From: Escherichia phage StefiGeyer_Bas88
Reading direction: 5' to 3' (one strand)
DNA: 64,000 nt
Sequence record: PQ850628.1
The notes beneath the pieces were generated by a model. It had not been told where the DNA came from. It made no database searches and was given only the letters and a program-made list of their open reading frames with translations. Shown in pieces: positions 18,037 to 39,009 of the stretch (position 1 is its first letter; every line of letters starts with the position of its first letter). A program made the translations under genes and the position numbers.

Positions 18037-18855
18037 TTACCAAGTTTTATCTAACCATGACCATTCAAAGAGGTCACCTTCAGCTTGTCCGACGAAGAGC
18101 AATCGAGCATTTTCTAACATCTTAGCTTCTGCTTCTTCCTCGAACCTCTTATAGTATTCCATTCGTATAATATGATAAAGAGTCCACTTATCGAATACCT
18201 TCTCAATAAGTTTGATAGCAGCTTTGCTACCAATACCCTTACGACGCATAACTAAGTTACCGCCCCACATCATTTCAACTTTCTCACCACATCCGGGGAT
18301 GTTGTCTGTACTGTCCCCAATCAACATCTGATAGAAGAAGTTCTGCCATGCTACTTCCTCTGGTACATAATGAGGGGGTACTTCTTTCTGTCGTTCACCA
18401 CAAGCCCAGCGATAATGCCATCCGGGAGTGATTAACAAATCCTTATCACGAGTACAGATGATTGTGTTCTTTTCTATACGCTGTCGTTCAGCGAGTGCAT
18501 CATCTGCTTCTCTGCCAAACACTTCAACATACTGGTAATGTTCTTTGATATAATCACTAACGTTCTGCCAGTGATGTGGCCTTTCTCCCGGAGGTCGGTT
18601 AGCTTTATAACCTTGCTGCTTGGCAACATCGAAGCGGAAGTTTCCACCTTCGCTGAAATAAAAGATTGTTCTTTCACAACCAGCTCTTGAGATGATTACA
18701 TCAATCTTATGTTGGAGACGTTCAATCAAGAATCCATAATCAACTGGAACACGACCTGTGTCTAGGAAAGGATGCTCTTGTGTAAGAGCACCAACCTCAT
18801 ACCGTAGAACATCTGCATCCACAATTGCTACTTCAGGATAGATTACATCAGACAT
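18037..18855 (-). CDS. 5'-3' exonuclease / flap endonuclease (T7 gp6 / T5 D15-like)
   Basis: IVDADVLRY N-terminal motif and LIGDSTDNIPGCGEK...GIGSKAAIKLI helix-hairpin-helix typical of FEN/RNase H-like exonucleases. Confidence 0.7.
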   Translation of the reverse strand: MSDVIYPEVAIVDADVLRYEVGALTQEHPFLDTGRVPVDYGFLIERLQHKIDVIISRAGCERTIFYFSEGGNFRFDVAKQQGYKANRPPGERPHHWQNVSDYIKEHYQYVEVFGREADDALAERQRIEKNTIICTRDKDLLITPGWHYRWACGERQKEVPPHYVPEEVAWQNFFYQMLIGDSTDNIPGCGEKVEMMWGGNLVMRRKGIGSKAAIKLIEKVFDKWTLYHIIRMEYYKRFEEEAEAKMLENARLLFVGQAEGDLFEWSWLDKTW

Positions 18856-19444
18856 AGAGACCTCTCCGTGTCCCTTCAATAATCCACTCCAAATCCTCCA
18901 CTGCCTCTTCTACAGAACGGTCATTAAAGAGGAGGTAGGTTGGTAGGTTTGTTCCTTCAATATAAGAACGGGAGTCCCCTTCAAAGGAGCATCCATCTCG
19001 GAGAATCTGAACTACTCGAACATGGAAACGTTTTTCCAGTTCTTCAACTTCTGCTTTAAACCCACCATCAGAGAATACAATAACATCATTCTGTGTTGGG
19101 ATGCGTTGTTGAATACTGCTAACAGCAAGTTTACCCATGCAGGTATCACCAAACATTGGTTTCAGGTAGTTCTCACTAGTCGCAATCATTAAATCTCGAA
19201 CTGTCTTACCGCCCCATTCAGGACGGCTATATTCTTTCCACTCACGGTCGTTGTATAGCTCCATGAACTCATAAAGAGGAAGTCCTAATGCAGCAGCAGC
19301 CACTCGATACATAGGCTCCTTAAAAGCCTTTACATGCGGTCTAAACTCAGTGTTACCGACGGTCTTCTCTAACCAAGCATTAGCGATTGTATCTTTACCA
19401 CAACCCGGTGGTCCATTCAGAATTACTACTAATGGTTTACTCAT
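18848..19444 (-). CDS. deoxynucleoside monophosphate kinase (T4 gp1-like)
   Basis: P-loop NGPPGCGKDT, the GKDT variant typical of phage dNMP kinases; start overlaps the sigma-factor stop (TAATG). Confidence 0.55.
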   Translation of the reverse strand: MSKPLVVILNGPPGCGKDTIANAWLEKTVGNTEFRPHVKAFKEPMYRVAAAALGLPLYEFMELYNDREWKEYSRPEWGGKTVRDLMIATSENYLKPMFGDTCMGKLAVSSIQQRIPTQNDVIVFSDGGFKAEVEELEKRFHVRVVQILRDGCSFEGDSRSYIEGTNLPTYLLFNDRSVEEAVEDLEWIIEGTRRGLYV

Positions 19445-21690: not shown

Positions 21691-21701
21691 ATATACATTA
21701 C
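21691..21701 (-). promoter_or_regulatory. phage promoter-like motif (GTAATGTATAT) facing SSB-like gene
   Basis: Motif on - strand about 60 nt upstream of the 21632 start. Confidence 0.3.
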
Positions 21702-23786: not shown

Positions 23787-24027
23787 ATTTATTTTGTGTT
23801 TCCAGCTCGATAATACGAACCTTCAATCCATTGATCTCTGCATCAGCAGCTTCTAGCTTAATCAAACTTTCTTCAGCGTTAGCTTCAATCTGGATAACAG
23901 CAGTAGTCAGTTCATACAAAGCTTGACGTAAGGTATCCTTACCCATAGAGTGAATCTGTGCAAGGAGATGTTGTTTACCTTCGGTTGTTTCCAGAGTTTC
24001 TTTTAATTCTTTAGAGGTTAGAGTCAC
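23785..24027 (-). CDS. coiled-coil hypothetical protein
   Basis: 80 aa, heptad-like helical sequence. Confidence 0.3.
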   Translation of the reverse strand: MTLTSKELKETLETTEGKQHLLAQIHSMGKDTLRQALYELTTAVIQIEANAEESLIKLEAADAEINGLKVRIIELETQNK

Positions 24028-24409
24028 TATTAATTCCTTTCGTAGATTTTGAGAACTGTACCACCATCTGCTTCAATCTGAGCAACGACTTCATCGCACT
24101 CTTCATCAGTATAAACCAGTTGGTTATGAAATTTACCAGTGGAATCTTGGTAATAGATGTTCCACTTTGGGGCGGGTTTACGAATCAGGTCCATCATTTA
24201 GCTTTCTCCTCTCGTTCTACCCATGTTTGAAATAATTCACCATAAGCTTTAGCGTCTTCAAAACGACCTTCATCCTGTGCGAGCTTTTGTTGCTTCAAGC
24301 ACCATTCAGAACTTTTTACTTCTTCCACTTCCTTGTCTCCTTAAAAAGAACTAATCAATAAGACTAGTTCATTTCGTAATACCATTCAACTCTTCCACTG
24401 AACTAATCA

Positions 24410-24721
24410 CTACTTCTCCACCACAAAGAGGTTAACTTCAATGAAAGTTTCGTATTGTGTTGACTCCTGCTTACGGGTGTAGTAGAAATGACGACCTTCT
24501 AATGCACCTCCGTACTGAGTGGCACATCTTTTAACCATCTCTTTTATCACATCTACAACTGATACGCCTTTCCACGGACGTAACCCATGAGTAGGAATTT
24601 CTGCTGTGCAGGTTACTTGTGTGTAACCCACATCTTGGAGAGGTATATCAAGAATCAGTTTTGCCCAAGCATCAAAATTGAGCTTGGGATTATATTTAAC
24701 TTCAGTTTTGATATCAATCAT
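24410..24721 (-). CDS. hypothetical protein
   Basis: 103-aa ORF directly downstream of the polymerase gene. Confidence 0.35.
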   Translation of the reverse strand: MIDIKTEVKYNPKLNFDAWAKLILDIPLQDVGYTQVTCTAEIPTHGLRPWKGVSVVDVIKEMVKRCATQYGGALEGRHFYYTRKQESTQYETFIEVNLFVVEK

Positions 24722-26568
24722 TAGTGAGTATGATTCCAGTTAAGCCCAATCTTACAATCTGATGCAAGAGGGCATTCCATCTTGAGGTATTCACCCGCTT
24801 TACGAACACACTCCTCAGTGAGAGTGCGAAGTTTGTTAACATCGTCACGATGTACAGTGAACTGACCTTCATCATGCATGTCGATAACCTTCGCACAACG
24901 AACACCATCACGCTCAATCCATTTATTGAGGAATAGCATTGCATACTTCATAACAATCGCCCCAGCGCTCTGTAAGAGCGTATTTAAGGCTTTGTGTGTC
25001 ATGACCTTTCCTGTACCGTCACGTCTCATTGTAATACGACGACCGTCAACACCGTAGATGTATCCACTTTGTGCTTTCTCTGTCATACGTTCAATAAGGA
25101 TTGCAATACAAGGGTTCTCTGCTAAGAATCTAGCTCTCATTATAGAACCTTCATCAGCCCCACCACCAACAATACTACCTAGCTTAGCATCACCAGCTCC
25201 GTAGTTGAATGCGTAGATAAACGTCTTAGCATTATCACGGGTAGGCAAGCCAGCAAGTTTCTGGTTATGGGAGTGAATATCACCCTGTAAGAGAATATCT
25301 CTGTACAATACGGCAGATGCTAAACCGCGTTCAGCTTCTCGTTTCTTAGCTGGGTTATTCTCTTGTTCTGCCTCTGCCAACATCTCACGACACTCTTTAA
25401 TAAGGTAGTGAGCCAGCATACGCAGTTCTAACCCTGAACCATCATAACCAAGAAATACTTCATGACCAGAAGGTATGTAATATTTCAGAGCACCTATCGG
25501 TTTGTCTTTCTTGCCCGGTTTTCCCACTTCGTAGATAGTGTTTGTACCTTTTCGTACGTAACACCCATCAGGGATATGGTTGGTAATGATGATAGGATTG
25601 TGATTACTATCACTTGAGGTACAGTCAGACTGAAATAGACTGCGGCACTCGTGACCAAACAAACCGCGAGAAGGAATATTAACAACAATACGGTGTTTAA
25701 AACGAAATGTCGGAGTAGCGCAGCTATTAGCTTCGGCGGACAACTTACCATCTTCTCGTTCCTTGTCTATAAGACCATTAATCAAGCCAAGCCTATGAGC
25801 CGCTACAACACGTCTCTTAAGCAAACTTCCCACACCCCCTAGCTCACCCCCAAGACCTTCTTCAAGCGTCTCCTCGAGGTTTGTAGGAGCTGTAGGCCAT
25901 TTGTTTGACATGGCTAGAGCTTTCTTAATTTCATCAAAGGTTACAGGCTTCTTCCTGTTCGGATTCAAACCTAAACCGCTAACGTACGCTTTCATGTAAT
26001 TGACAGTGTGATAACGGAAGTGTTTATCCAAGAACCGACGAATGTCAGCGTCAATCATCTCAGCTGTCTGTTTTTCTTTAGCGTTTCCTCGCATCCAAGC
26101 AGAATACCAAGCAGCATATGTGCCATACTTCTTCATCGCTTTACGGATTTCGTAAGTATTCCAAGGTTTCTTGGATGTGTTCCACTCTGGAGGAATAAAG
26201 CCTTCGTCCATCAAGGCTTCTTTGATACGTGCATCTTTCGATGGGTCGAAGTCTACATACTCAACGCAAGTAAACGCCCCACCGATATCTTCTCTTTTAA
26301 GACCAACTCTGTCACAATAGAGCTGAGGCCACTTCTGTAAAGCACCTGACTTCTTAAAAGGTTTCGAATAAGTTGAACCATCCACCCGCATTTTGGGGAG
26401 GAGAGGAATCAGTTCTTTATCAATATTGACAATAATCTCTTTGAGAAGGTGAACAAACCACCGAGCGTTTCTTCTGTGGAAGTTGACGCCATGCTTCGCC
26501 TGCTTTGAGATTATATCAGCGACTGTCATCTCCGTTATGAAAGGTAACTTATCAGGGTTATCCATCAC
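24721..26568 (-). CDS. family-A DNA polymerase, polymerase domain only
   Basis: Motif B RDNAKTFIYAFNYGAGDAKLG and motif C MHDEGQF; no 3'-5' exonuclease motifs in this ORF. Confidence 0.8.
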   Translation of the reverse strand: MMDNPDKLPFITEMTVADIISKQAKHGVNFHRRNARWFVHLLKEIIVNIDKELIPLLPKMRVDGSTYSKPFKKSGALQKWPQLYCDRVGLKREDIGGAFTCVEYVDFDPSKDARIKEALMDEGFIPPEWNTSKKPWNTYEIRKAMKKYGTYAAWYSAWMRGNAKEKQTAEMIDADIRRFLDKHFRYHTVNYMKAYVSGLGLNPNRKKPVTFDEIKKALAMSNKWPTAPTNLEETLEEGLGGELGGVGSLLKRRVVAAHRLGLINGLIDKEREDGKLSAEANSCATPTFRFKHRIVVNIPSRGLFGHECRSLFQSDCTSSDSNHNPIIITNHIPDGCYVRKGTNTIYEVGKPGKKDKPIGALKYYIPSGHEVFLGYDGSGLELRMLAHYLIKECREMLAEAEQENNPAKKREAERGLASAVLYRDILLQGDIHSHNQKLAGLPTRDNAKTFIYAFNYGAGDAKLGSIVGGGADEGSIMRARFLAENPCIAILIERMTEKAQSGYIYGVDGRRITMRRDGTGKVMTHKALNTLLQSAGAIVMKYAMLFLNKWIERDGVRCAKVIDMHDEGQFTVHRDDVNKLRTLTEECVRKAGEYLKMECPLASDCKIGLNWNHTH

Positions 26569-26581
26569 CCACTCCTTATAA

Positions 26582-26935
26582 TTATTGGTATATTAAATCA
26601 GTGAACGCTTGGTTATCCTCGACAATATCTAACTGTTCATAGGATTCCGTTAATTCATCCACATAAAAGACTGCTGGAATATCTTCTGCTCGCTGTCTAC
26701 GAGTTTCTCTTTGTTCATTGCTGTTTCTCTGAACCTGTGCAAGTTTCATACCCCACACCTGCTCATACAACTCAGGATACTTATCACTAACCACTACAAA
26801 GTTTCGAGCTGGTTGGTTTCGGTTAATCTTCGCTGTTAATTCAATAAACTGACGAAACTCTTGAATGGAGAGGTTGTCATGAATATTGTCCCATTTGAGA
26901 ACGCAGTGACGTTCTAGGCGTTGAGGTACTGGCAT
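26582..26935 (-). CDS. hypothetical protein
   Basis: 117-aa ORF; no motif. Confidence 0.35.
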   Translation of the reverse strand: MPVPQRLERHCVLKWDNIHDNLSIQEFRQFIELTAKINRNQPARNFVVVSDKYPELYEQVWGMKLAQVQRNSNEQRETRRQRAEDIPAVFYVDELTESYEQLDIVEDNQAFTDLIYQ

Positions 26936-26938
26936 AAC

Positions 26939-27208
26939 TTACTCCACTGTCGGGAAAGGTTTCAGATTGTTCATAGCTGTACGAACATCAGCACAGATTT
27001 CAAGATCACGATAAGAAAGGAATTTTCCATCCTTACCACGAATCATTACATTAGTTCGTGCTGTTTTATTAGGCAATAAAGAAATCCCTCCAATCAGATG
27101 GTTGGTAGGGTGTTGTCCTTGATTAACCTTGTAATCATGAGTCTGAGCATCACCATTAAAGAGATGATCACGGATTTGGATTAAGCTGATCTTCATATTA
27201 TGCACCAA
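26939..27208 (-). CDS. small protein, TARTNV...NLKPFP family (paralog 2)
   Basis: Shares TARTNV.(I/L)RG.DGKF.S.RD ... NLKPFP with the adjacent gene. Confidence 0.4.
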   Translation of the reverse strand: MVHNMKISLIQIRDHLFNGDAQTHDYKVNQGQHPTNHLIGGISLLPNKTARTNVMIRGKDGKFLSYRDLEICADVRTAMNNLKPFPTVE

Positions 27209-27449
27209 AGTTAGGGAAAGGTTTCAGGTTTTCAATAGACTTAGCAATACGCTTAGGAACACTCTTATCACGGAAGGAGATGAACTTGCCATCAGGACCA
27301 CGAAGAGCCACGTTAGTACGAGCTGTTGTTGGGTTAAATTGAATCATCTCAACAGAGCTTGTAACATTGCTCACGGGGAAGGTGTAGCTTTCAGTTACAT
27401 CCAGAAAAGGAAAGAAATCAGTTACAGTGATATAAGTTACTTTAGACAT
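27198..27449 (-). CDS. small protein, TARTNV...NLKPFP family (paralog 1)
   Basis: Tandem paralog of 26939..27208. Confidence 0.4.
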   Translation of the reverse strand: MSKVTYITVTDFFPFLDVTESYTFPVSNVTSSVEMIQFNPTTARTNVALRGPDGKFISFRDKSVPKRIAKSIENLKPFPNFGA

Positions 27450-27469
27450 ATTTATTACCTTAGGTTATA

Positions 27470-27500
27470 TAAAAGAAAAGGCCACCCGAAATGGGTAGCC
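27470..27500 (-). terminator. rho-independent terminator (- strand)
   Basis: GGCUACCC-AUUUC-GGGUGGCC followed by UUUUCUUUU. Confidence 0.5.
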
Positions 27501-27505
27501 TTATA

Positions 27506-27820
27506 TTAACTTGAGCTTAAAGCTCCTTTGCGACCGCCTGCTGATTTTCCAGCACGATCTCCACTTTTGCCGCCGTTCGAGCGATTTCCAGAGACTGATT
27601 CAACACGTAAGTTACTTGACGCATTAGAACCTCCCGACTTGATTGATCGTTTATGTCCAACATCTTTACCTCGGACAGCAGCTTTTCCATCGCGCTTTTC
27701 AACGATGCGACGTGCACGGTGGCGCTGAGCATCTCCGCTCTTGCTACCAACGCCGGTTTCACCCCTTGCGATTGCAGTTCTTCGTTCTTGTGCATAATCA
27801 CGTTTTGCCTTATCAGTCAT
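27506..27820 (-). CDS. basic Gly/Lys/Arg-rich small protein (stress-protein-like low complexity)
   Basis: Strong AAGGAG RBS before ATG; promoter-like motif upstream; an overlapping alternative frame (27517..27801) lacks an RBS. Confidence 0.35.
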   Translation of the reverse strand: MTDKAKRDYAQERRTAIARGETGVGSKSGDAQRHRARRIVEKRDGKAAVRGKDVGHKRSIKSGGSNASSNLRVESVSGNRSNGGKSGDRAGKSAGGRKGALSSS

Positions 27821-27854
27821 CATAACTCCTTAATATATCAGTGTACACTAAGGA

Positions 27855-27864
27855 GTATACATTA
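27855..27864 (-). promoter_or_regulatory. phage promoter-like motif TAATGTATAC
   Basis: Between PhoH stop and next gene start, - strand orientation. Confidence 0.3.
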
Positions 27865-27867
27865 TGT

Positions 27868-28605
27868 TTAGGATTTTTCAGATTCCATTGCTTTAACAAT
27901 AGCTTTACAGAAACCTGAACGAACAATATCATCTGACTCACCATCAACCAAAGCAGCAAACTCAAACAGGTTGTGCTTGTCAATGAAGTCAGTAGCCCAT
28001 TCCAAACCACTCTCACCACGCATGTCGTGCTGGTTAGTGTCACCCATACAGAACATCTGAGAGGTTTCACCAAGACGAGTCATAATAGAATATGCTTCAT
28101 CAGGAGTGGTGTTCTGAAACTCGTCAACAATCACAATAGCATCATTGAACGAACGACCACGGAGGTATTCCAGAGGTACGAACTCAATGTTACCATTACC
28201 AATTTGACACTCGTAGAAACCTTTACCGTAACGCTGAGTAATAACATCAACGATTGGCATCAGGTATGGTTCGAACTTCTCACGCAACCCACCGGGGAGT
28301 AATCCAAGCGAGTTACCCATACCAACAGCAGGTCGGCTTAGGATAATCTTTTGAATCTTCCCACTTTTCAGAGCATCAATAACTGTTGTTGTGATAACAT
28401 AGGTCTTACCACAGCCAGCAGGAGCATCCGTAAAGACTACTTGTTTAGTCTTGATAGCATTGAGCAGTTCGGATTGAAACTGATTCTGAGGGACTACAGG
28501 CTTAGCAAGAACAACTTCTTGATACTCACGTTTACCTTTATTAGTCACCTGTTCACCACGACGAGCTGCTTTCCGTGCTTCTCTACGAGTTTCTCTGCGA
28601 TTCAT
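27868..28605 (-). CDS. phoH: PhoH-like ATPase
   Basis: Walker A APAGCGKTY, Walker B IVIVDEF, and RPAVGMGNSLGLLPGGLREKFEPYL typical of PhoH. Confidence 0.85.
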   Translation of the reverse strand: MNRRETRREARKAARRGEQVTNKGKREYQEVVLAKPVVPQNQFQSELLNAIKTKQVVFTDAPAGCGKTYVITTTVIDALKSGKIQKIILSRPAVGMGNSLGLLPGGLREKFEPYLMPIVDVITQRYGKGFYECQIGNGNIEFVPLEYLRGRSFNDAIVIVDEFQNTTPDEAYSIMTRLGETSQMFCMGDTNQHDMRGESGLEWATDFIDKHNLFEFAALVDGESDDIVRSGFCKAIVKAMESEKS

Positions 28606-28783
28606 TTTCTACCTCCAAGTTCTTCATACGTGTAGCTACAGGATTTACACTCTGAACAATGAGTACCTATAACCTTAACTTCGACAAATTTCTTATTCTT
28701 CCCTTTCGTCGGAGAGCCTTTAGCAAGCTCTCGTATTACTTTCGAGTCCAGATGGAGAAGAGTGGATTCACATTTAAAACATT

Positions 28784-29104
28784 TCAGATAGATTTGTCCT
28801 TATGTAAACGATATACTTCAGTAGCCATACAAGCAATACGCTCGTCATGAGGGAGATGCATACCAGTAGAGCCATTCCACCCATTGAACTCTGAATCAAA
28901 GAATCCAATAGGCTCAGGATACATCTCTTGCAAAGTGGTTAAGTCATCAGCCACTTGTTGCCATTTATCATCAGACCAGATTGGGTCATCCAACCAATAA
29001 TACAAATAGGAGTGGATAAGCATCTGCGTTCTGTGTCGTTTAATCACTTCAGCAGGACTAATCTCGTTTCCGTTACCAGTCCTAAATGTATTATCATTAA
29101 TCAT
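28784..29104 (-). CDS. hypothetical protein
   Basis: 106 aa; HSYLYYWLDDPIWSDDKW faintly resembles a ligase N-terminal helix motif but is too short to call. Confidence 0.3.
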   Translation of the reverse strand: MINDNTFRTGNGNEISPAEVIKRHRTQMLIHSYLYYWLDDPIWSDDKWQQVADDLTTLQEMYPEPIGFFDSEFNGWNGSTGMHLPHDERIACMATEVYRLHKDKSI

Positions 29105-29105
29105 T

Positions 29106-29318
29106 TTAAACCTTTTCGATTTTAATTAAATCAACATCAGCCCAAATACCAACAGGTATCAGCTTCTTCTTGGATTTAAGGGCAACATCATAGATGCTTT
29201 GCCAAGGCCAGATAAACACTTCAGAGATAATCTCATAAGGTTCAATCTTGGTGGGGTATGGATTCCTGTCTGAGATACGGAAAGTAAATCGATGTTTTCC
29301 TAATACTAAACCTTTCAT
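29106..29318 (-). CDS. hypothetical protein
   Basis: 70-aa ORF in tight array. Confidence 0.3.
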   Translation of the reverse strand: MKGLVLGKHRFTFRISDRNPYPTKIEPYEIISEVFIWPWQSIYDVALKSKKKLIPVGIWADVDLIKIEKV

Positions 29319-29528
29319 TTACTTAACCTCAATAATCCCAAGTTTCCAAACATATCCGGGAGAAGAGTCCTGAACAGCTCCGTATTGAAGAACAACATCA
29401 CAAGCATCACTACCCATACCATCTAGCATCAGCTGACCACGAGTAGGACGGTCTTTGTAATAAGTTGCTTTTACTTCTGTGTCGTGAGTCCATTCACTAA
29501 AGCATAGACTTAATTTGTAGATTCTCAT
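29319..29528 (-). CDS. hypothetical protein
   Basis: 69-aa ORF. Confidence 0.3.
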   Translation of the reverse strand: MRIYKLSLCFSEWTHDTEVKATYYKDRPTRGQLMLDGMGSDACDVVLQYGAVQDSSPGYVWKLGIIEVK

Positions 29529-30004
29529 TCCAAAACCCTTTCTTCTAAATCATAAAAGATTTGATTTGTCCCATTATTCTCAACAAGCACTGTACCATTA
29601 TCTAACAGAGTAGCAACTTGTGAATAAGGAATGTTCTTTAACATCAGAGCGTTGATGGTTGGCTTATTTTTGAAGTAAGCGACCGGTTCAACATAGAAGG
29701 AAATCCCACGACTCCCTTTGATTGGGGTACTCGAAGATAAAACCCAAATCGTTTCTGGCTTGTCTATTTCCTTTTCAACACCAACCTCAACAAGTGAGTC
29801 AGCAGCGAAACCTACAGGACGACTAGAAGAGCCAAGTGCCCGAATAAATCCTGGCAATTTTGACATGTTAGACCAACTACCAGTGTTTTCATTAAACACA
29901 GGTCTTACGTCTCCATATGCCCAAACCAGATTATCATAGTCACGGGCTATGTATTTAACCCAATCAGGAACATCATACTCCCTTCCTTCAAAAATAGCTT
30001 TCAT
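29525..30004 (-). CDS. hypothetical protein
   Basis: 159-aa ORF; no motif. Confidence 0.35.
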   Translation of the reverse strand: MKAIFEGREYDVPDWVKYIARDYDNLVWAYGDVRPVFNENTGSWSNMSKLPGFIRALGSSSRPVGFAADSLVEVGVEKEIDKPETIWVLSSSTPIKGSRGISFYVEPVAYFKNKPTINALMLKNIPYSQVATLLDNGTVLVENNGTNQIFYDLEERVLE

Positions 30005-30235
30005 TTAGATAACCTTGTGCTTATAGATGTTAGGGTTGTAGTAATGCAACCAGTTTATGTATTGTTTCTGTTCGAGGTAGTGCCTGCAATCATGACAAAA
30101 AGCATGACCCAAACCTGTTTCCTCATTCAGTTTGAAATTGATAAGAAGCTTCTGCTTTCGACAGAAGCTACATGCTTTAGTGGGCTTCACGTAATGCATC
30201 CCAAGAGATTGGATATATTTTACGAAGCTCTTCAT
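30005..30235 (-). CDS. small zinc-ribbon protein (start uncertain)
   Basis: CSFCRK ... CHDCRH Cys pairs; overlaps the 3' end of the ThyX-like gene. Confidence 0.3.
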   Translation of the reverse strand: MKSFVKYIQSLGMHYVKPTKACSFCRKQKLLINFKLNEETGLGHAFCHDCRHYLEQKQYINWLHYYNPNIYKHKVI

Positions 30236-30827
30236 CAATTGTTGATGCGAACACTCGTACTTCGTACTGAGCATGGTCTGACAGTCGCTGACGACACAAC
30301 TCTGACCAACCATATAGAGAACCAGTCCATACCCACTCAGTGATCATACCCTGAGGTAATACGAATCGAGCTTGTTCTGGAGCAATGAACTTAATCAATT
30401 CATCGTACGACTCAAGAGCTGTTTCATATGCTCGGTTAATCAGAACTAGTGCAGAGTTTTGTGCTCCTGTGGTGAGGAGATTCCCTGCACCTGCATGGAG
30501 GTCCGAAGGTCTTTCAAAAATCTCTTTAGGGATGAAGAGTTCAACTGCTCCATCTTTATACCGCCGGGACATTTCGTTCCACGAGAATCCAACTTGATGC
30601 TTGCCCAACTGTCTCGCAATTGCGATTGGCGCTTTGCATCGGAAGCTAATTGTCGGATGACGGAATGGTGTGACATGCTTTTCTCTGGCAAGGAACTTGA
30701 TAAGGCGTTCATCTCGTTCATTTAACTCTCCTTCACGAGTAACCCCAAAGGAAACTCGAGCTGCATTAACAACAGATTTATCAGAACCCATTGCTTCGAT
30801 TAGTGTTGCTTGTAATTGTTCATTCAT
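30177..30827 (-). CDS. thyX: flavin-dependent thymidylate synthase (ThyX)-like, non-canonical RHR motif
   Basis: AARVSF...HVTPF.H...F.CKAPIAIARQ ... SRRY ... SDHAQYE align to ThyX; the RHRx7S motif reads KHQVGFSWNEMS here. Confidence 0.65.
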   Translation of the reverse strand: MNEQLQATLIEAMGSDKSVVNAARVSFGVTREGELNERDERLIKFLAREKHVTPFRHPTISFRCKAPIAIARQLGKHQVGFSWNEMSRRYKDGAVELFIPKEIFERPSDLHAGAGNLLTTGAQNSALVLINRAYETALESYDELIKFIAPEQARFVLPQGMITEWVWTGSLYGWSELCRQRLSDHAQYEVRVFASTIDEELRKIYPISWDALREAH

Positions 30828-30841
30828 CCTTGAACTCTTCC

Positions 30842-31057
30842 TTAATAATGAATCTTTTTATAAATCATGTTGCTTCCACTTTCTGTTTCAATCCCTTTCT
30901 GAATTGTAATCTTAGAAGCGCCAGTGTTAGCAATTTTTAAAGCTCGCTTAAAGCGGCGAGCCTCTCTCCGTGTTGTATATGAGGAGAAACTAGGGATTGT
31001 GCTATCAAAATTAAACCACTTAACTGCCCAAAAAGTAATCCAAGGTTTCTTTTCCAT
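30842..31057 (-). CDS. small basic protein, W..W/TRxEAR/K(V/I)HY family (copy 3)
   Basis: WAVKW ... TRREARRFK ... KIHY, shared with 32922..33128 and 33128..33340. Confidence 0.4.
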   Translation of the reverse strand: MEKKPWITFWAVKWFNFDSTIPSFSSYTTRREARRFKRALKIANTGASKITIQKGIETESGSNMIYKKIHY

Positions 31058-31058
31058 A

Positions 31059-31334
31059 TTAAATACCTTTCAGAGCCGTGTCTAAAAATGCACGGAGATT
31101 AGATTCAGTTTGCATACCTGATAAGCTGTAATGAGCACCACTGTTCTTATCAGGGATGACAAAGGCTGGGATACTGCGAACACCATATTCAATGGCTCGC
31201 TCTCGACCATCACCTTCAGAGATATTTACTTCTTCAACTTCTACACTGTAGTCAGCCACAACCTTCTTAAACACAGGAGCCATAGCTGCACACGGAGCAC
31301 ATGAATTACTATAAAACTTAATTACTTTACTCAT
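31059..31334 (-). CDS. thioredoxin-like protein
   Basis: MSKVIKFYSNSCAPCAAMAPVF with CxxC active site and the cis-Pro region VRSIPAF; ATG at 31334. Confidence 0.6.
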   Translation of the reverse strand: MSKVIKFYSNSCAPCAAMAPVFKKVVADYSVEVEEVNISEGDGRERAIEYGVRSIPAFVIPDKNSGAHYSLSGMQTESNLRAFLDTALKGI

Positions 31335-31524
31335 TCTATTCCTTGTTAATAAACAGGTTGATATGACGCTGGGTAGCAGGAACAACAATAAAAGATTTAT
31401 ACTGACCTTTTGCTAAGTCATGAGCAATCTTCTTTGTCTGACCAAGACCCATCACACAGCCACTAACGATAATGGCATGTGCTTGTAATTCTTCAGGTAG
31501 GTTTAGTTTCACTCTTTAGATTCC

Positions 31525-31710
31525 TTATAGCATACAAAGAATAATAACAAGAGGTAGTGTTATAGCAAAATGTACCAGAACAACACTACCTAGCTTGATA
31601 GCTTTAACATCCTCTTCTGCTGGGTTTTCTTTAATTGCTAAATTTCGAGCTTTATATATAACAGTACCAACTATTAACGACCACACGGCCCACACAATCA
31701 GTGAAATCAT
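31525..31710 (-). CDS. small two-helix membrane protein (paralog 2)
   Basis: Two hydrophobic segments; similar to the adjacent gene (IVWAVWSLIVGTVIY vs IVWSVWAILVGGIVY). Confidence 0.4.
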   Translation of the reverse strand: MISLIVWAVWSLIVGTVIYKARNLAIKENPAEEDVKAIKLGSVVLVHFAITLPLVIILCML

Positions 31711-31719
31711 ATCAAACCC

Positions 31720-31941
31720 TTATGCAGTCAACAGGTGGAGAAGGAAAGGAATGACAACAGAGAAAATTACCAGAGCAATGCTGCCATGTTTAATGGGTTT
31801 AGCATCATTCGGATTTTCTTTAAGCATCTGTTTCTGAGCCAGATAAACGATACCACCAACAAGAATTGCCCACACAGACCATACGATTGCTGAAAACATA
31901 TTCACATCCTTATAAAGAAGTTCGCCCCACCTCTTAAACAA
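31720..31941 (-). CDS. small two-helix membrane protein (paralog 1)
   Basis: Tandem paralog of 31525..31710. Confidence 0.4.
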   Translation of the reverse strand: MFKRWGELLYKDVNMFSAIVWSVWAILVGGIVYLAQKQMLKENPNDAKPIKHGSIALVIFSVVIPFLLHLLTA

Positions 31942-31962
31942 AGAGACAGGGCGGAGGTTTGA

Positions 31963-32529
31963 TTAGTAAGACACGTCACCACTAGAGTGGGACATGTTGC
32001 TCTTGACGAAGTAACAGAACTTGCCAAGACCTTCATTAATTTCTTGAAGCATACTCTGGTCTACTGGATAGGTGCACAAGTCTGAATCAAACTCGTCCAT
32101 CTTTTCAATGATACACATCAGAGTCATGCACATGTCGGAAAGCATACCGTCCATGTCGAGATCAGCACTACCTTCTCTGAACCAAGCACAACTAAGATAG
32201 CTACTAGCTGTTGCATCCACTTTGATACAGTGATAACGCATTCGCTCAGCTACTCGGTCTCCTGTTTCACGAGCATAGTCTTCTAATTCATCGAACATAC
32301 CATGAACACCTTGGAAACCAGCTCCAGAGACGTTCCAGTGGTAATTCTTTGCTTTGATGTGTAGAAGCTCAAGGTTAGCCTGCACACCGCATAGGATGTG
32401 CTCTAGACTGTTACCGCTGATCAGTTTATTCATTCCCTCAAGACGAGAGATAGAGGAGTCAGTTGTAGAGAATGGGTTACTAGAACCCACTCGTGTTAGT
32501 TCAGGTAAGTCGAAGACATTATTATGCAT
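31963..32529 (-). CDS. Dps-like ferritin-fold protein
   Basis: LELLHIKAKNYHWNVSGAGFQGVHGMFDELEDYARETGDRVAERM aligns to the Dps ferroxidase region, with the His, His, Asp and Glu ligand positions present. Confidence 0.55.
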   Translation of the reverse strand: MHNNVFDLPELTRVGSSNPFSTTDSSISRLEGMNKLISGNSLEHILCGVQANLELLHIKAKNYHWNVSGAGFQGVHGMFDELEDYARETGDRVAERMRYHCIKVDATASSYLSCAWFREGSADLDMDGMLSDMCMTLMCIIEKMDEFDSDLCTYPVDQSMLQEINEGLGKFCYFVKSNMSHSSGDVSY

Positions 32530-32869
32530 TAGGAGTCTCTCCTTCTAAGTTAGTTGAATTAGCCACATTACGAGCAATGTTATCCATGACCTGCTGTGTA
32601 ATAACAATGCAATTCTGAGGGTCTACTGATTTAGAACGCCCCATTTCAGGGTCATAGACTTTGACTCGCTTGGCTGTTGAGCCAGTAACTTGCAACACTT
32701 TGAGAAGATAACCTTGATTTCCAATAGACCATGCAACAACATCACGATTCTTGATATAACGACCAAGCATATCACGATGATAGAACTGCTGCATAACTTT
32801 AGCTTTGCTAATCTCTTCAGATGGCGGGGCCACTTTACTCAAATCTAACATAACTCTCTCCTGTTTCAT
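32522..32869 (-). CDS. hypothetical protein
   Basis: 115-aa ORF; promoter-like motif immediately upstream. Confidence 0.35.
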   Translation of the reverse strand: MKQERVMLDLSKVAPPSEEISKAKVMQQFYHRDMLGRYIKNRDVVAWSIGNQGYLLKVLQVTGSTAKRVKVYDPEMGRSKSVDPQNCIVITQQVMDNIARNVANSTNLEGETPNA

Positions 32870-32886
32870 ACAATATTCTTATACTG

Positions 32887-32896
32887 TATATACATT
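32887..32896 (-). promoter_or_regulatory. phage promoter-like motif AATGTATATA
   Basis: Intergenic, - strand, 17 nt upstream of the 32869 ATG. Confidence 0.25.
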
Positions 32897-32921
32897 TGAG
32901 AGTTATCATATCTACTACCAA

Positions 32922-33128
32922 CTAGTAATGAACCTTGCTAGTCAAGGATCCTGCACTGTTATTGTCACTTTGAAACCAACGATGAATCTCTACTTTTTCA
33001 GCGAGACCTAAAGCTTTTGTAGCTTTCTTAGCAAGACGAGCTTCTTGTCGAGTGTCGAATAATTTAAGACAATCACCACCAAGGTCTTTGTTAGCCCATT
33101 TAACGCGAACTGCCCATAATTTAGTCAT
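32922..33128 (-). CDS. small basic protein, W..W/TRxEAR/KVHY family (copy 2)
   Basis: WAVRVKW ... TRQEARLAKK ... KVHY. Confidence 0.4.
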   Translation of the reverse strand: MTKLWAVRVKWANKDLGGDCLKLFDTRQEARLAKKATKALGLAEKVEIHRWFQSDNNSAGSLTSKVHY

Positions 33129-33340
33129 TAGTAATGTACCTTTCCACTGATATAGAAACGACCTGATTTAAAGTCTTGAGCTTTGTGAATAGTGACCTTA
33201 TCAATTGTACTTTCACAGCTTAATAAGAATTTCTTATGAGCGCGAGCCTCTTGACGAGTATTCCTGATGCCCATTGATTCCGTACCACTACTCCAGCGGA
33301 TACGAACGACCCAACGTCTTTTCATTGTTCCAAACTCCAT
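33128..33340 (-). CDS. small basic protein, W..W/TRxEAR/KVHY family (copy 1)
   Basis: WVVRIRW ... TRQEARAHKK ... KVHY. Confidence 0.4.
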   Translation of the reverse strand: MEFGTMKRRWVVRIRWSSGTESMGIRNTRQEARAHKKFLLSCESTIDKVTIHKAQDFKSGRFYISGKVHY

Positions 33341-33540
33341 TATCTGTCAACCGATTCAGGGACAAACTGCATTACACATACCTGATTACGAGGGAGATTT
33401 ATTTCACAAGCAGCTTTTCTATCAGCAACCTTTGCTGATGAGTTAGGGCCTATTTGAGCCATCATTATTCCCATAGCAAACATGCCGATGATTATGCCAA
33501 TTGATAGAGATGCTACGGTTTCTTGTTTCATCTTAATCAC
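33340..33540 (-). CDS. small membrane protein
   Basis: Hydrophobic helix SLSIGIIIGMFAMGIMMA. Confidence 0.3.
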   Translation of the reverse strand: MIKMKQETVASLSIGIIIGMFAMGIMMAQIGPNSSAKVADRKAACEINLPRNQVCVMQFVPESVDR

Positions 33541-34070
33541 ACCCCTTTAGATGCAACTACACTATTGCTACCATTGTAGCGACCCTTCACTGCATATGAA
33601 TCGTCGCCAGCGTGAGAGTGTTCAAACATAACCATCTGACCAACACGCATTCCAGCACGAACTCGTAAGCTGTGATTGTGGGTAACATTATGGAACTCAA
33701 AGGTCAGCTTACTGTTGTTAAACCCTGCATCAGCCCAACCAGCATGGAGATGGTTTAAACCACAACGAGCCATTGAGGAGCGGAGTACAAACAGACTTGA
33801 AATATTATCTGGAAGGTTAAACTCTTCCATTGAGTGAGCTAAGAAGAACTGTCCCGGAGTGATAACGATACCATCTTCAGGGATTTTTACTTCTTTCCAC
33901 TTGAGGTTTTCTTTAGCATCAATGTCAACAATACCATCAGCCTGCTCTTCAACAAGGATAGTATCACCAATACGGATATCCACACTAGCAGCGTTAACAT
34001 ACTTATGCTCCGCATCTAAAAAGCCATTATCAATAACGCTGTGTAATTCTTGAGAACCTAAAAGACTCAT
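33537..34070 (-). CDS. dcd: dCTP deaminase (dUTPase fold)
   Basis: FVLRSSMARCGLNHLHAGWADAGFNNSKLTFEF matches the dCTP deaminase/dUTPase family core. Confidence 0.7.
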   Translation of the reverse strand: MSLLGSQELHSVIDNGFLDAEHKYVNAASVDIRIGDTILVEEQADGIVDIDAKENLKWKEVKIPEDGIVITPGQFFLAHSMEEFNLPDNISSLFVLRSSMARCGLNHLHAGWADAGFNNSKLTFEFHNVTHNHSLRVRAGMRVGQMVMFEHSHAGDDSYAVKGRYNGSNSVVASKGV

Positions 34071-35503
34071 GAGTTTCTGTTTCCTTGTACAGATGATGCC
34101 AAATTGTTAATCATATTACGAGCTGTTTCACGAGTTAGTGTAACACCTGCTAAGTTGTTATGAAGTTCACCAGAGAGTTCACGAGCAGTAGCCCGAAGCT
34201 CTTCACCAAGTGAAGTGTTAGAGTGAGCCAAACCATTACGACGACCAACAGGTCGAGGAGTTTCGTTAGCGTCATTAGCTAAAGATGCAAAACCAATACG
34301 AGCAGCTTCACGAGCGGCTATAGCTGCTACCCGATCTTCCGTAGGGGTTGGCAAATCACCAACCCCTACACGTTCAATATCACTAGCACGTAGACCCTGA
34401 GTAACAGATCTTACTGTTTCCCATGAACGACGAGAGCGCTGCAAATCATCCATTGATGGAGAAGAAACAGGACGAGCAGTTCCTCCTGAGACATGCCATG
34501 TATGGTTATGCATTCCAGAAGATCGTGCACTACCAAAACTACCGGTGAAAGTATCACGAGGTGCCATTGTACTAGGGGCTGCGAATCTTGCCTGTTGCCA
34601 AGAGTCACGTCTGTCAGTTCCCGGAGTCCAAGGCTGCGTAATTGCTTCAACACCAATAGTGGTTAACTCACTAGACCAATCTGTCTGTAGGTTAACTTCT
34701 TCATCCAGATAGATACGACCCGCTTCCTGAGGAATATTTAATACAGTTTCCATCATCTTCAAGGTGTAGTGGCGACGTTGATTCTGATACAAGTTTACAC
34801 CAGCCATAGGCCCAACTAAATCACTGATCAGATGAACTTCTGGTTCACCAAAAGCTCCCATTGCAAGGTGCATATACTCAGTAGAACTGCTGTAAACTGC
34901 AACTGTTGCTTCAGGCCACTTTTTGTGGACATACTTCATGTCACGACTTGTCACCACAGGGATATCATTAGTATATGCCATTGCAAACATACCTTCGTTC
35001 GACACATACATATCATCGAGAGTCATAAACCCTTGACAGATCATAGGGAAGCGACCGCTCAGAGTATCCATATCCAGAGGAAGGTTAATCATCATCTGAA
35101 TCTTCACTTCATCAATCTCAATTTCCAGAATCTCTTGGAAAGTGAAAAGTGCGTCAGCATAAGTTGTCCCACTAACAGGCTGGACTAAACGAGATGTAAC
35201 TTGAAGTCCCTTACTCTCTGTCCAAGACAAGAAGTTGTCAAGGAACAGTGCAGCATTACCCACGTTAGCAGGGCTGTTTTCCTGACGAGTGTTCCAACGA
35301 AACCCTCCTTGAACTAGGAAGATATCAACATCATTCGGAGTTCGGTTCTGGAAGAACGTATCACGGATAGCACCACCTGCAATAACAGGATAAATACCAT
35401 CAGGGACTACGTTATCTCTGATCAAATTACGAATCAGGTCAAGCCCTACGCTGAGGGCTTCTCCTTCTTGAAGGTTCAATTCAGACAATGGAATCTTAAT
35501 CAT
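34067..35503 (-). CDS. nucleotidyltransferase with CCA-adding/poly(A) polymerase-type head domain and divergent C-terminal region
   Basis: VIAGGAIRDTFFQNRTPNDVDIFL matches the GGxxRD...DxD head-domain signature of class-II tRNA nucleotidyltransferases; C-terminal ~200 aa is low complexity. Confidence 0.45.
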   Translation of the reverse strand: MIKIPLSELNLQEGEALSVGLDLIRNLIRDNVVPDGIYPVIAGGAIRDTFFQNRTPNDVDIFLVQGGFRWNTRQENSPANVGNAALFLDNFLSWTESKGLQVTSRLVQPVSGTTYADALFTFQEILEIEIDEVKIQMMINLPLDMDTLSGRFPMICQGFMTLDDMYVSNEGMFAMAYTNDIPVVTSRDMKYVHKKWPEATVAVYSSSTEYMHLAMGAFGEPEVHLISDLVGPMAGVNLYQNQRRHYTLKMMETVLNIPQEAGRIYLDEEVNLQTDWSSELTTIGVEAITQPWTPGTDRRDSWQQARFAAPSTMAPRDTFTGSFGSARSSGMHNHTWHVSGGTARPVSSPSMDDLQRSRRSWETVRSVTQGLRASDIERVGVGDLPTPTEDRVAAIAAREAARIGFASLANDANETPRPVGRRNGLAHSNTSLGEELRATARELSGELHNNLAGVTLTRETARNMINNLASSVQGNRNS

Positions 35504-35505
35504 TT

Positions 35506-36054
35506 CTACATTTTCCAGTTGAGAGATGGGGGATTCTTATAATCAAATCCAGCCATTTGGCAAAGACACATGTAAACCTTAACTGTCAAGTTAACGTCTT
35601 GCTCACAATACGTGAACATGTCTTCAGTGAAAGCATCCCATGCTTCTTCCTGCTCACCATAATCACCCTTTAGCTCACCCAGAAATTCGCCCCATTGCTT
35701 GAGGCCATGACCACGAGGGCCATGTCTTGGGTCGCCTTTGGGATATTCTGGATTGTCTCCAATACGGTCAGGCTTGAGATAACGACTCAGGCAAAGTGTA
35801 TCGAAAACATTGAAACGGAAGGGTGTTACATGAGAGTAGAATTTAAAGAGAGCTGGTAGGTCAAAATCTATGATATTGTGTCCTACAACTACATCAGCTT
35901 CCTTCAGTTTGTGAAGAGCTTCTTCAATTTGGTGAGGGCGATACCCCCACCGCTCTCCTGAGAGAATATCAAATATCCAGATACACCAGACATTTTGGAT
36001 ACCCTCATAAAGATTATCACCCTCAATATCGAAGGCGAATATTTTCTTTACCAA
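35506..36054 (-). CDS. DnaQ-like 3'-5' exonuclease (stand-alone proofreading domain)
   Basis: Exo I FDIEGD, Exo II HNIIDFD, Exo III YCEQD. Confidence 0.7.
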
Positions 36055-37838
36055 GGTCGTGCCTCCCCGTCTTGTGTTAGAAGGGAAGCTGCATCTTCAC
36101 CATTGGTTAAGACAAACGGATTAGCTTCATCAACTTCATGATCTTCTCGTTCTACAAGACGACCTGTTTCGTTGATGTATTTGGTGTAGCAAACACCTGT
36201 CTGACCATAGTTACGCTCCTTAAGGAGACGTATGATTGACAAATTCTTGCCTAACCCATCTGCTTGCTTATCTCGTTCAAAACCGATGATACACTGACAC
36301 CAACGCATCAGTGAACGTGAACCAGTGAACTGAACCTCTTTCACCTGTCCACCTTCTTCGTGAGGAGCACCACCTGCCGGAGCATTCAAGTGAGATAATA
36401 CAAAAGCAGTGAAGTCTAATTCCTTACACATACCAGCAAGCTCTGAGGCAATCTTACTGATTTCTGTATTCACTTCAGAAGGAGTTAGGTGAGATACCAA
36501 TGCAGTGATGTTATCAAGAATGATAAACTTACATTGATTCTCAACTACCCAAAAGCGAATACACTGCTTAATATCATCCCACTCATTCTGACCGAAGTTA
36601 TCATACAAGAAGAATTTATCAGCATAACGAAGTGCTTCATCACGTAGCTGAGATTCCTCATATTCAACATCAGGTCGGTGGAAAGGTACAGATGCTGACT
36701 TACCTGCAATGTTTTTAACAGACATGCCTACCTTCTCTTCCAAGAAGAAGCCACCACCATTAAACCCATGTTCAAGGCAAAGCCATGCTACCAGTTCGTG
36801 TGCTATCAGGGTTTTACCTGAACCAACACCACCACCGATTGCAACCATCTCTCCCCAACGAATGCCGAAGGTCATTTCATTCAGAGTTTTCCACGGATAA
36901 GGAATACCCCACTCTGCTTTCTTCAGAGCATCTTCTAAACAATCAAAGACAGTAACAGCACCAGCAGGTGATTCCCGCTTCGCTGAATACTTCAGATTGT
37001 TGAATAACTCTTGACCTCGACCAGCGAGTAACATGTCATTTGCATCTTTGATTTCCTTCTCTTGACCATTGTAAGCGAAGGTTCCTTTCGGAATACGAGC
37101 AAATTTAACATGGGGATATAATGCACGACCTTTAGTTAATGCAATCTCACCTGCATCATCATTATCCATGCAGAGCACAATCTCCTCAAAACCATTCAAG
37201 AAGTCACGGTTACGTGAGAGAACGGAAGAGATTGAACCTGCACCAAACGGTAGAGATACACACGCAGGTTTGATGTTTGTAGCGTTCGTGAACGCAGTGA
37301 GCACATGGAAGCCAGACATACAAGAGAGTGGGTCTTCAAAGATGAAGAGTTTCTTGTTGTACACGTCACCACGTTGTGCTTGAGCCATACCGAATAGGTC
37401 AGCTTCTTTAACACTGCCGATGTAATAGAATTTCTTGCTGTCTAGAAGCTTAACTTCATAGCCAACAATGTTTCCATCACGTTCACGAGGGAAGAAGTAA
37501 CTATCAGGAGTTTGCCCATCTGTCTGACTCAAACCGATACGACATTCATATCGTTCAGAGACAGCTTTAGGAATCAAACGACGAGTAAGCTCACCCTGAG
37601 GTAGCTCTAAGCAATCGTCTAAGATCTCTCGGAGTTCTTCAGGGGATAGTTCTTTCTTCTCATTCGGTGTAGGAGTTGTTCCCTTTTCGAAAACTTCATA
37701 ACTACCACAGCGATTACAACTGCCCCACTCTTCACCGGACTCTTCATTTCGGAAGAGAATCATGTGATTGTGGGTCTTATCACGACCATGAGAGATACAT
37801 TCTTTACAACCTGTATCCCCTAAAATGATCTTTGACAT
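36048..37838 (-). CDS. primase-helicase (T7 gp4-like)
   Basis: N-terminal zinc-binding Cys clusters, TOPRIM-like middle, Walker [10 protein letters not shown] and DnaB-family helicase motifs. Confidence 0.85.
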
Positions 37839-37874
37839 GCTCTATCCTCCTTGGAATTCCTTGAGCAGACTTCT

Positions 37875-38081
37875 TCAATAAAACGAACGTATTTCTTCCC
37901 ACACATCATCTTGAAGATTTTTAAAACCCTGTAAAGCTGATTGGGTTCTCATGATAAAGTCTTCAGAATGTTTATTGCGGTCAAGCATACTGACAAACTT
38001 GTCATAGCGGTTAATCTTCCACCGTAACTTTAAGTAGTCAGACTCGAGCTTTCTCAGCTTCTGTCGCTCAGTTACTGTCAT
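37875..38081 (-). CDS. hypothetical small protein (start uncertain)
   Basis: ORF overlaps the GGCT-like gene end; internal ATG likely. Confidence 0.25.
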   Translation of the reverse strand: MTVTERQKLRKLESDYLKLRWKINRYDKFVSMLDRNKHSEDFIMRTQSALQGFKNLQDDVWEEIRSFY

Positions 38082-38499
38082 CCTGATCACCTGCCAGATA
38101 CGCTGTCCAGTCGCCAGATTCAACCAAAACATCTTGTTCTTCGTCGATATGATAAATCCATGCTTCCACAGTCTCGCCATTATCCAGCACCACTGGAATC
38201 AGTGTACGATTGTAGAAAGTGTATGGATTGTCTTTACCACGATAACCTTCCAGACCGTCATACGGACCTTCCAGACCAGCTTGGGTTGTTTCAAAGACTT
38301 CTACACGAACAGGCTTGCCATTGCTGTCATGCACCAGAGATACACTTGGGAAGTATGCTGTGCAATACTGATACAGGTTACAGTTGTTCACTGTCCAACC
38401 TTCACCAATAGACACACCACCTGCACGAGCATTGATAGCGTGGTTGTGTTGACCTTTACGAAGAGAACCATACGTTGCAACTAATACTTTATCAGACAT
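38068..38499 (-). CDS. gamma-glutamyl cyclotransferase (GGCT/AIG2)-like protein
   Basis: N-terminal VLVATYGSLRKGQHNH matches the YGSL motif of the GGCT/AIG2 fold; 143 aa. Confidence 0.45.
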   Translation of the reverse strand: MSDKVLVATYGSLRKGQHNHAINARAGGVSIGEGWTVNNCNLYQYCTAYFPSVSLVHDSNGKPVRVEVFETTQAGLEGPYDGLEGYRGKDNPYTFYNRTLIPVVLDNGETVEAWIYHIDEEQDVLVESGDWTAYLAGDQDDSN

Positions 38500-38564
38500 T
38501 ATATTACCTTTTGTGTTTCAGTTAAATTCGAACTAGCCTCCTCTTTCGAAGAGGCTAAAGCAAA

Positions 38565-38750
38565 TTATTCTACTTCGAAGTGTTTGATCACACCAGTCAA
38601 TACATCAGATTGGAACGTACCTACTAACTCTGCGCCTCGGAAGAAATTGACATTTGTTCCAAGTGTTTCAAAGCGTTCTGCTTGAATGTCCAGAGATTGA
38701 ATATTCCCTTCTGAGTTTACTGTACGAAACATGATTGTGTATTTATTCAC
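38565..38750 (-). CDS. hypothetical protein
   Basis: 61-aa ORF. Confidence 0.25.
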   Translation of the reverse strand: MNKYTIMFRTVNSEGNIQSLDIQAERFETLGTNVNFFRGAELVGTFQSDVLTGVIKHFEVE

Positions 38751-38989: not shown

Positions 38990-39009
38990 TACAAATTCCT
39001 TTTGTTTAA

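Follow-up and report, generated by a model that had tools for sequence, protein, structure and literature searches.

Two Genes for the Domains of a Gp5-Like DNA Polymerase

The window considered here is a stretch of 64,000 nucleotides (nt) from Escherichia phage StefiGeyer_Bas88 (PQ850628.1), in which the two domains found in the single-chain DNA polymerase gp5 of phage T7 are encoded by two distant genes, one for a family-A polymerase and the other for a 3'-5' exonuclease located beside the gene for a primase-helicase. All the genes of interest are carried by the minus strand (Table 1). The window belongs to the Gordonclarkvirinae, i.e., phiEco32-like podophages whose heads are prolate and whose genomes measure ~77 kb, its nearest relatives being ECBP2, TH34, and TH43. 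Over the 14 kb from 24000 to 38000, it shares 90-96% nucleotide identity with ECBP2, TH34, and IME267 across 94-97% of the length, and nucleotide comparison with a phage collection matched this region in 98 records, other Gordonclarkvirinae among them.

The open reading frame (ORF) of the polymerase (24721-26568) translates into 615 amino acids (aa) from a GTG codon at 26568. The most likely start is, nevertheless, the ATG at 26565 since an AAGGAG is found 6 nt upstream of it (AAGGAG-TGGGTG-ATG), and the resulting predicted protein of 614 aa has the length of its closest homologues. At the protein level, this ORF is 99.5% identical to that of Escherichia virus TH43 and 85% identical to that of phage 172-1. 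DNA_pol_A (PF00476) is its sole Pfam match (residues 362-612, E 3.4e-24), and no exonuclease family of Pfam was matched in it. T7 gp5 is both the best PDB match by phmmer (E 1.7e-33) and the top fold match of the AlphaFold2 (AF2) model (E 8e-26; predicted local distance difference test, pLDDT, 89.0). In the alignment with T7 gp5, motif A (DxSxxE; D375...E380) corresponds to D475...E480, motif B (RxxxKxxxY/F; R443, K447, Y451) to R518, K522, Y526, and motif C (HDE; H564, D565, E566) to H653, D654, E655. The three motifs and the thumb-palm-fingers fold of family A are thus present, while the N-terminal 3'-5' exonuclease domain is missing from the chain and is supplied by a separate gene. The protein covers about residues 208-704 of T7 gp5 and exhibits three insertions relative to it (about residues 134-228, 320-366, and 390-418). 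The initial annotation, which had described a polymerase gene with motifs B and C and no proofreading motifs, can be retained with the addition of motif A and the shift of the likely start to ATG 26565.

The exonuclease gene encodes a protein of 182 aa, equivalent to residues 1-207 of T7 gp5. It matches PF01612, the PolA 3'-5' exonuclease family, with 27.1 bits (cut-off 23.6), T7 gp5 residues 3-142 by phmmer (E 1.5e-8), and, in PHROG, "DNA polymerase exonuclease subunit", the families of this name being phrog_403 and phrog_38876. Regarding the active site, D9/E11 of Exo I (DxE) align with D5/E7 of T7 gp5, H59, N60, and D65 of Exo II (Nx2-3F/YD) bear identical residue numbers in T7 gp5, and Y149/D153 of Exo III (Yx3D) align with Y170/D174. 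The AF2 model is confident and compact (pLDDT 92.1). In a fold search of the PDB, T7 gp5 chains take the first 27 places (E 2.5e-10 to 1e-7, TMq up to 0.75) and the exonuclease domains of family-B polymerases come next (E 4.5e-5), diDNase and RNase T also being returned at E about 1e-4 (RNase T ~3.5e-4).

With Exo I, II, and III and a predicted RNase H-like fold, the enzyme is, as judged from its motifs, of the DEDDy (PolA) type. It had been called "DnaQ-like", a label which is correct at the superfamily level and wrong at the family level: membership of the DnaQ/epsilon (DEDDh) family can be rejected, as Exo III reads Y149-x3-D153 and not Hx4D and no RNase_T/DnaQ model of Pfam or NCBIfam was matched. 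The existence of a stand-alone exonuclease with the three Exo motifs next to the primase-helicase gene is otherwise borne out. Its start codon is a TTG at 36054, with a GGGGAGG 7 nt upstream, and overlaps the TAA stop of the primase-helicase gene by 7 nt.

Since this start codon is weak and the gene is detached from that of the polymerase, it can be asked whether the ORF is only a decaying, functionless remnant of the N-terminus of an ancestral polymerase. The alignment of 18 exonuclease homologues, with identities down to 32%, is at odds with such decay: the five catalytic residues D9, E11, D65, Y149, and D153 are invariant in it, as are H59 and N60, and invariant columns number 30. Moreover, the ORF is kept at full length in about 97 phage records as well as in distant clades, and the model is compact. 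This explanation is thus highly improbable and, because of the conservation of the exonuclease, effectively refuted.

The relationship between the two genes can be defined to the residue when T7 gp5 is added to an alignment of the concatenated exonuclease and polymerase with natural fused homologues. The C-terminal "NPPSLNW" of the exonuclease (residues 174-180) corresponds to the linker of T7 gp5, which ends at W207, and residue 3 of the polymerase corresponds to S208, right behind the exonuclease domain and linker; no part of gp5 is lost or duplicated across the two proteins. On phrog_17, the PHROG profile of the full-length polymerase, the exonuclease occupies positions 670-826 and the polymerase positions 837-1233. 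From this alignment, the break in an ancestral gene-5 polymerase is predicted to lie precisely at the linker that joined its exonuclease domain to its polymerase domain. The alignment against T7 that had been proposed as a check therefore leaves the polymerase without an exonuclease domain.

Table 1. Features of the window that bear on the split polymerase, with the evidence for each.
Feature	Position	Strand	Evidence
T7 gp4-like bifunctional primase-helicase	36048..37838	-	phrog_239 DNA primase/helicase, E 6.9e-174; Pfam DnaB_C, Toprim_2
Stand-alone DEDDy 3'-5' exonuclease (exonuclease domain + linker)	35506..36054	-	Pfam, phmmer, PHROG, AF2, residue mapping
About 23 same-strand genes between exonuclease and polymerase	26582..35503	-	ORF list, PHROG and Pfam matches
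AAATGTAT motif (phage sigma gp36-type promoter consensus tAATGTAt)	32890..32897	-	Upstream of SU10 CDS68 homologue; motif search
Strong terminator-like hairpin, 13-bp stem, intergenic, between exonuclease and polymerase	31923..31953	-	Consensus match only
Phage thioredoxin, between exonuclease and polymerase	31059..31388	-	Pfam Thioredoxin, E 7.5e-13
Second TAATGTAT motif	27857..27864	-	SU10 CDS56/57 middle promoter position, upstream of polymerase; motif search
Second terminator-like hairpin, 10-bp stem and T run, intergenic, between exonuclease and polymerase	27478..27502	-	Consensus match only
Exonuclease-less family-A DNA polymerase (thumb, palm, fingers)	24721..26565	-	PF00476, phmmer, phrog_17, AF2, motif mapping
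Third WAATGTAT motif	21693-21700	-	Motif search
Separate 5'-3' exonuclease (T7 gp6/FEN-like)	18037..18879	-	phrog_107 exonuclease, E 5.5e-60; weak Pfam 5_3_exonuc_N

Fused and Split Relatives

Both fused and split forms of this enzyme can be found among phages. All 35 close homologues of the exonuclease stand alone (105-195 aa), and the 120 best homologues of the polymerase, down to 37% identity, do not exceed 618 aa and must therefore lack an exonuclease domain. In the phage collection, at an identity of at least 60%, the polymerase is present in 98 records and the exonuclease in 97, and for several pairs of homologues the longest contigs are equally long. A wider profile search of 1.8 billion representatives returned 4,900 relatives of the exonuclease. 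Among the best 150, 79 are longer than 500 aa and also match the hidden Markov model (HMM) of the polymerase, with the exonuclease domain at the N-terminus, while 45 have at most 240 aa, 42 of them without any polymerase match and three with a short N-terminal piece of the polymerase. This distribution indicates that fused and split forms coexist within one exonuclease family, with the break at the domain boundary; in the fused homologues, the polymerase HMM begins at residues 155-185, directly behind the exonuclease match. The exonuclease does not, then, cluster with unrelated nucleases, either by its 27 best PDB folds or by its best relatives.

Gene order is likewise conserved. Among 80 IMG/VR loci retrieved by means of the exonuclease profile, primase-helicase, exonuclease, polymerase, and 5'-3' exonuclease usually follow one another on one strand, and in 64 loci exonuclease and polymerase form a single ORF. 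This is the order of T7 genes 4-5-6 and it is retained in the window, where the 5'-3' exonuclease gene lies 5.8 kb downstream of the polymerase gene. Genome similarity and the succession of primase-helicase, exonuclease, ~9 kb of other genes, polymerase, and 5'-3' exonuclease place the window with the split arrangement of the phiEco32-like phages. T7 gp5 remains the nearest solved structure for both proteins, with catalytic residues in one-to-one correspondence. However, gp5 is one chain of 704 aa, while in the window the equivalent of this chain is divided at about W207/S208 between two genes separated by 8.9 kb; the polymerase of the window also differs from it by its three insertions, and the thioredoxin is phage-encoded in the window and host-derived for T7.

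The split is in fact shared by the whole phage lineage and has already been published as well as annotated. It has been stated for Kuravirus-like phages (PMC9965538), and separate polymerase and 3'-5' exonuclease genes have been described in LUZ24-like phages in a paper which cites the 2008 report on phiEco32 for the same organization (PMC3517423). In RefSeq, the exonuclease homologue ECBP2_0072 is named "DNA polymerase exonuclease subunit". The phiEco32/Kuravirus-like phages ECBP2, SU10, and YF01 resemble the window in genes, order, and spacing, with separate 3'-5' and 5'-3' exonuclease subunits, and the annotated gene order is identical in ECBP2 and SU10. In the LUZ24-like phages (Bruynoghevirus; PaP3, tf), the same split is found with the exonuclease gene directly behind that of the primase-helicase, the same upstream cluster, and a polymerase 40-41% identical to that of the window. 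Vibrio phage Vp_R1 (Grimontviridae) also has a stand-alone exonuclease (51% identical) behind the helicase gene and a separate polymerase gene on the same strand. A literature search on "split DNA polymerase" mostly returned introns or family-B enzymes of jumbo phages.

What differs among these phages is the distance between the two genes, which increases with genome size across four phages or contigs. It amounts to 1.7 kb, with six small genes, in the 45 kb genome of a Bruynoghevirus (WRAIR_EPa87), to 8.9 kb (8,940 nt from the exonuclease stop to the polymerase ATG), with about 23 genes, in the phage of the window (genome about 77 kb), to 9.6 kb in a 97 kb IMG/VR contig, and to about 19.5 kb, with about 49 genes, in Vp_R1 (112 kb), if the record of the latter is assumed to be circularly permuted so that its same-strand gene cluster is read across the record ends. 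The flank upstream of the exonuclease is common to the window, Bruynoghevirus, and Vp_R1, and comprises amidoligase, glutamine amidotransferase (GATase), ATP-grasp, and gamma-glutamyl cyclotransferase (GGCT) genes followed by primase-helicase and exonuclease. The breakpoint thus looks like a zone that took up genes. While the separation of about 9 kb was given correctly in the initial annotation, its qualification as an unusually distant split cannot be maintained: given gaps of 1.7 kb to ~19.5 kb among split relatives, the 9-kb distance is typical of the lineage, about 98 related records sharing the same layout.

Introns and Insertions in the Polymerase Gene

A more trivial explanation would be that the two genes only seem separate owing to an error of assembly or annotation, or that an intron or intein reunites the two parts in the RNA or the protein. 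In some relatives, namely ECBP2 and LUZ24 (PMC3517423), the polymerase gene is indeed interrupted by a group I intron. No intron was, however, found in the window at the Rfam gathering threshold, a single tRNA being the sole match, and each of the two genes is provided with a start codon and a Shine-Dalgarno sequence of its own. Furthermore, the 8.9 kb between them holds about 23 conserved protein-coding genes along with promoters and terminator-like hairpins, and the layout recurs in about 98 independent records. The comparative data thus refute this explanation, the least credible of those considered.

Unlike the polymerase gene of the window, which has no intron insert, that of ECBP2 is interrupted near motif C by an insert containing an ORF for an HNH endonuclease (2386-2991, minus strand, of the ECBP2 locus); the insert is matched end to end by the Rfam group I intron model, its score of 27 bits (E 3e-4) falling short of the gathering threshold. 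In many other relatives (clusters of ~450 aa, such as P0049), the polymerase ORF ends right after "RDNAKTFIYAFN", inside motif B (cf. residue 454 in the window), which suggests a second insertion site for an intron or homing endonuclease inside motif B of these relatives. In Vp_R1, a polymerase ORF of 503 aa is followed by an HNH gene, a further difference from the window.

Promoters, Hairpins, and Temporal Classes

On the basis of homology to phiEco32, for which the temporal classes have been measured, CDS69-125 of SU10 are considered early and CDS25-68 middle genes (PMC4281155). The SU10 homologues are CDS75 for the exonuclease, CDS76 for the primase-helicase, CDS51 for the polymerase, CDS65 for the thioredoxin, and CDS29 for the 5'-3' exonuclease. 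The three WAATGTAT sites of Table 1 lie at the positions of three published middle promoters, and the first of them coincides with the boundary between the early and middle classes of SU10, between exonuclease and polymerase (PMC4281155). The motif itself occurs 10 times in the whole window against 6.25 expected and is not enriched, its value residing only in the coincidence with published promoter positions of SU10 and phiEco32. Similarly, a terminator scan returned 12 sites against 9.7, without overall enrichment, and the two strongest intergenic hairpins are to be seen as candidates. A sigma-70 promoter scan of 24-39 kb yielded 20 sites, fewer than in shuffled sequence (30.9). On the basis of the phage-sigma motifs, the hairpins, and the SU10 class assignment, exonuclease and polymerase probably depend on different promoters for their transcription, the timing of which may differ as well.

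Probable Association of the Exonuclease and the Polymerase

Taken at the level of the proteins, it appears likely that the exonuclease and the polymerase together form a non-covalent, gp5-like holoenzyme in which the 182-aa protein acts as the editing subunit. According to this model, an ancestral gene-5 polymerase would have been split at the linker between its two domains; the N-terminal piece, its catalytic residues intact, would have remained attached to the primase-helicase gene, while the C-terminal piece of 614 aa would now lie 8.9 kb downstream, past about 23 inserted genes of nucleotide metabolism and accessory functions. The two products would re-associate non-covalently, and the exonuclease would, in trans, remove misincorporated 3' termini which it receives from the polymerase site, a division of labour known from epsilon and alpha of E. 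coli Pol III. In the latter, alpha (dnaE) and epsilon (dnaQ) are separate polypeptides, encoded by unlinked genes, which assemble non-covalently, and the proofreader belongs to the DEDD superfamily. The parallel has its limits, as Pol III combines a family-C alpha with a DEDDh epsilon whereas the window encodes a family-A polymerase and a DEDDy exonuclease which would derive from a single fused ancestor.

The phage thioredoxin encoded between the two genes may be a third component of such a holoenzyme and is a possible candidate for the processivity partner of the polymerase. Residues 64-135 of the polymerase align weakly (E 1.7) with T7 gp5 residues 289-356, beside the thioredoxin-binding loop, and the insert of the polymerase at the position of this loop is shorter than that of T7. 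Thioredoxin has been hypothesized to be a processivity factor in phage Privateer (PMC7881722), and in SU10 a thioredoxin homologue and the polymerase were both detected by proteomics in virion preparations (PMC4281155).

Several observations weigh against a holoenzyme of this kind. The SU10 homologue of the exonuclease is in the early class, together with that of the primase-helicase, and the homologue of the polymerase is in the middle class (PMC4281155); in the window, phage-sigma promoter motifs and two terminator-like hairpins separate the two genes. As the TTG start of the exonuclease is weak, the two proteins are not necessarily produced in equal amounts. Finally, a literature search for the biochemistry of a complex between the two proteins returned none, only genome reports being found.

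It could accordingly be proposed that the exonuclease is independent of the polymerase and either works together with the primase-helicase or is a nuclease of the early phase involved in host-DNA turnover, end processing, or anti-defence, in which case the polymerase would have no proofreader of its own. The translational coupling of its gene to that of the primase-helicase and its position in an early-class block, with the polymerase in the middle class, are in keeping with such a role, as is the functional versatility of the DEDD exonucleases, diDNase and RNase T being among the fold matches. Its nearest relatives in sequence and fold are, however, the editing domains of PolA enzymes (T7 gp5), by about five orders of magnitude, and it has kept the linker of gp5 as far as the breakpoint and co-occurs one-to-one with polymerases devoid of an exonuclease domain. 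Moreover, its adjacency to the primase-helicase gene can be regarded as ancestral, because gene 4 is immediately followed by gene 5 in T7 as well. Regarding defence or anti-defence in particular, this function was rejected as the exonuclease matched no defence-related model of PADLOC and no model of NCBIfam. On balance, an exonuclease working apart from the polymerase is unlikely.

A variant would be a proofreader uncoupled in time from its polymerase, given that the exonuclease gene is coupled to that of the primase-helicase within the early block while phage-sigma middle promoters precede the genes for the polymerase, the thioredoxin, and the 5'-3' exonuclease. A helicase-tethered exonuclease might then serve both polymerases in trans, or fulfill a second, early role before the polymerase is made, and the breakpoint would be an expandable zone growing with genome size. 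Such an uncoupling is rather doubtful. The C-terminus of the primase-helicase (36048-36150, minus strand) has an acidic tail with an aromatic last residue, which appears to resemble the acidic, Phe-terminated tail of T7 gp4, the part that binds gp5.

Genes Between and Around the Two Genes

The genes inserted between exonuclease and polymerase include those for a nucleotidyltransferase, a dCTP deaminase, a Dps-like DNA-binding protein, thioredoxin, ThyX, an Nlig-Ia domain protein, and PhoH, along with small ORFs; in ECBP2, 21 annotated genes are found at the equivalent position. The nucleotidyltransferase gene (34067-35503, minus strand) begins 2 nt past the stop of the exonuclease gene. Its product of 478 aa matches phrog_12715 (E 1e-162), without any match in Pfam, NCBIfam, or PADLOC, and has a long, Ser/Arg/Ala-rich C-terminal half which looks low-complexity. 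The "DNA binding protein" (31963-32529, minus strand) harbors a ferritin/Dps-like domain (Pfam Ferritin, E 2e-7), and its gene is followed by the hairpin at 31923-31953. A protein of 106 aa (28784-29104, minus strand) is limited to domain Ia, the NAD+-binding part, of an NAD-dependent DNA ligase (Pfam Nlig-Ia, E 1e-33); it is labelled "DNA ligase" in relatives, yet is far too short for one. Just upstream of the polymerase gene, two adjoining small genes (26939-27208 and 27198-27449, minus strand) both match phrog_6814, of unknown function, and look like a tandem duplication.

Beyond this interval, a free-standing HNH endonuclease gene (17441-18013, minus strand; phrog_3106) adjoins the 5'-3' exonuclease gene. 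The cluster upstream of the primase-helicase gene, in which the ATP-grasp protein is RimK-like, extends from 38068 to 43918 on the minus strand, and the tRNA of the window, a tRNA-Arg(TCT), is encoded in the early region (51444-51520, minus strand).

Implications

As the split is a published and annotated hallmark of phiEco32-like and LUZ24-like phages, its recognition in StefiGeyer_Bas88 has little discovery value in itself. As a natural system, these phages nevertheless lend themselves to the study of a family-A replicase whose editing domain is a separate subunit, and they are a potential source of an exonuclease-free T7-type polymerase to which proofreading could be added or withheld at will. 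With regard to genome evolution, the comparison of fused and split relatives, which had been suggested in the initial annotation and in which both forms were encountered, yields a series from fused enzymes to gaps of 1.7, 8.9, and about 19.5 kb, indicating that the boundary between two domains of one enzyme can become a site of gene accumulation in phage genomes.

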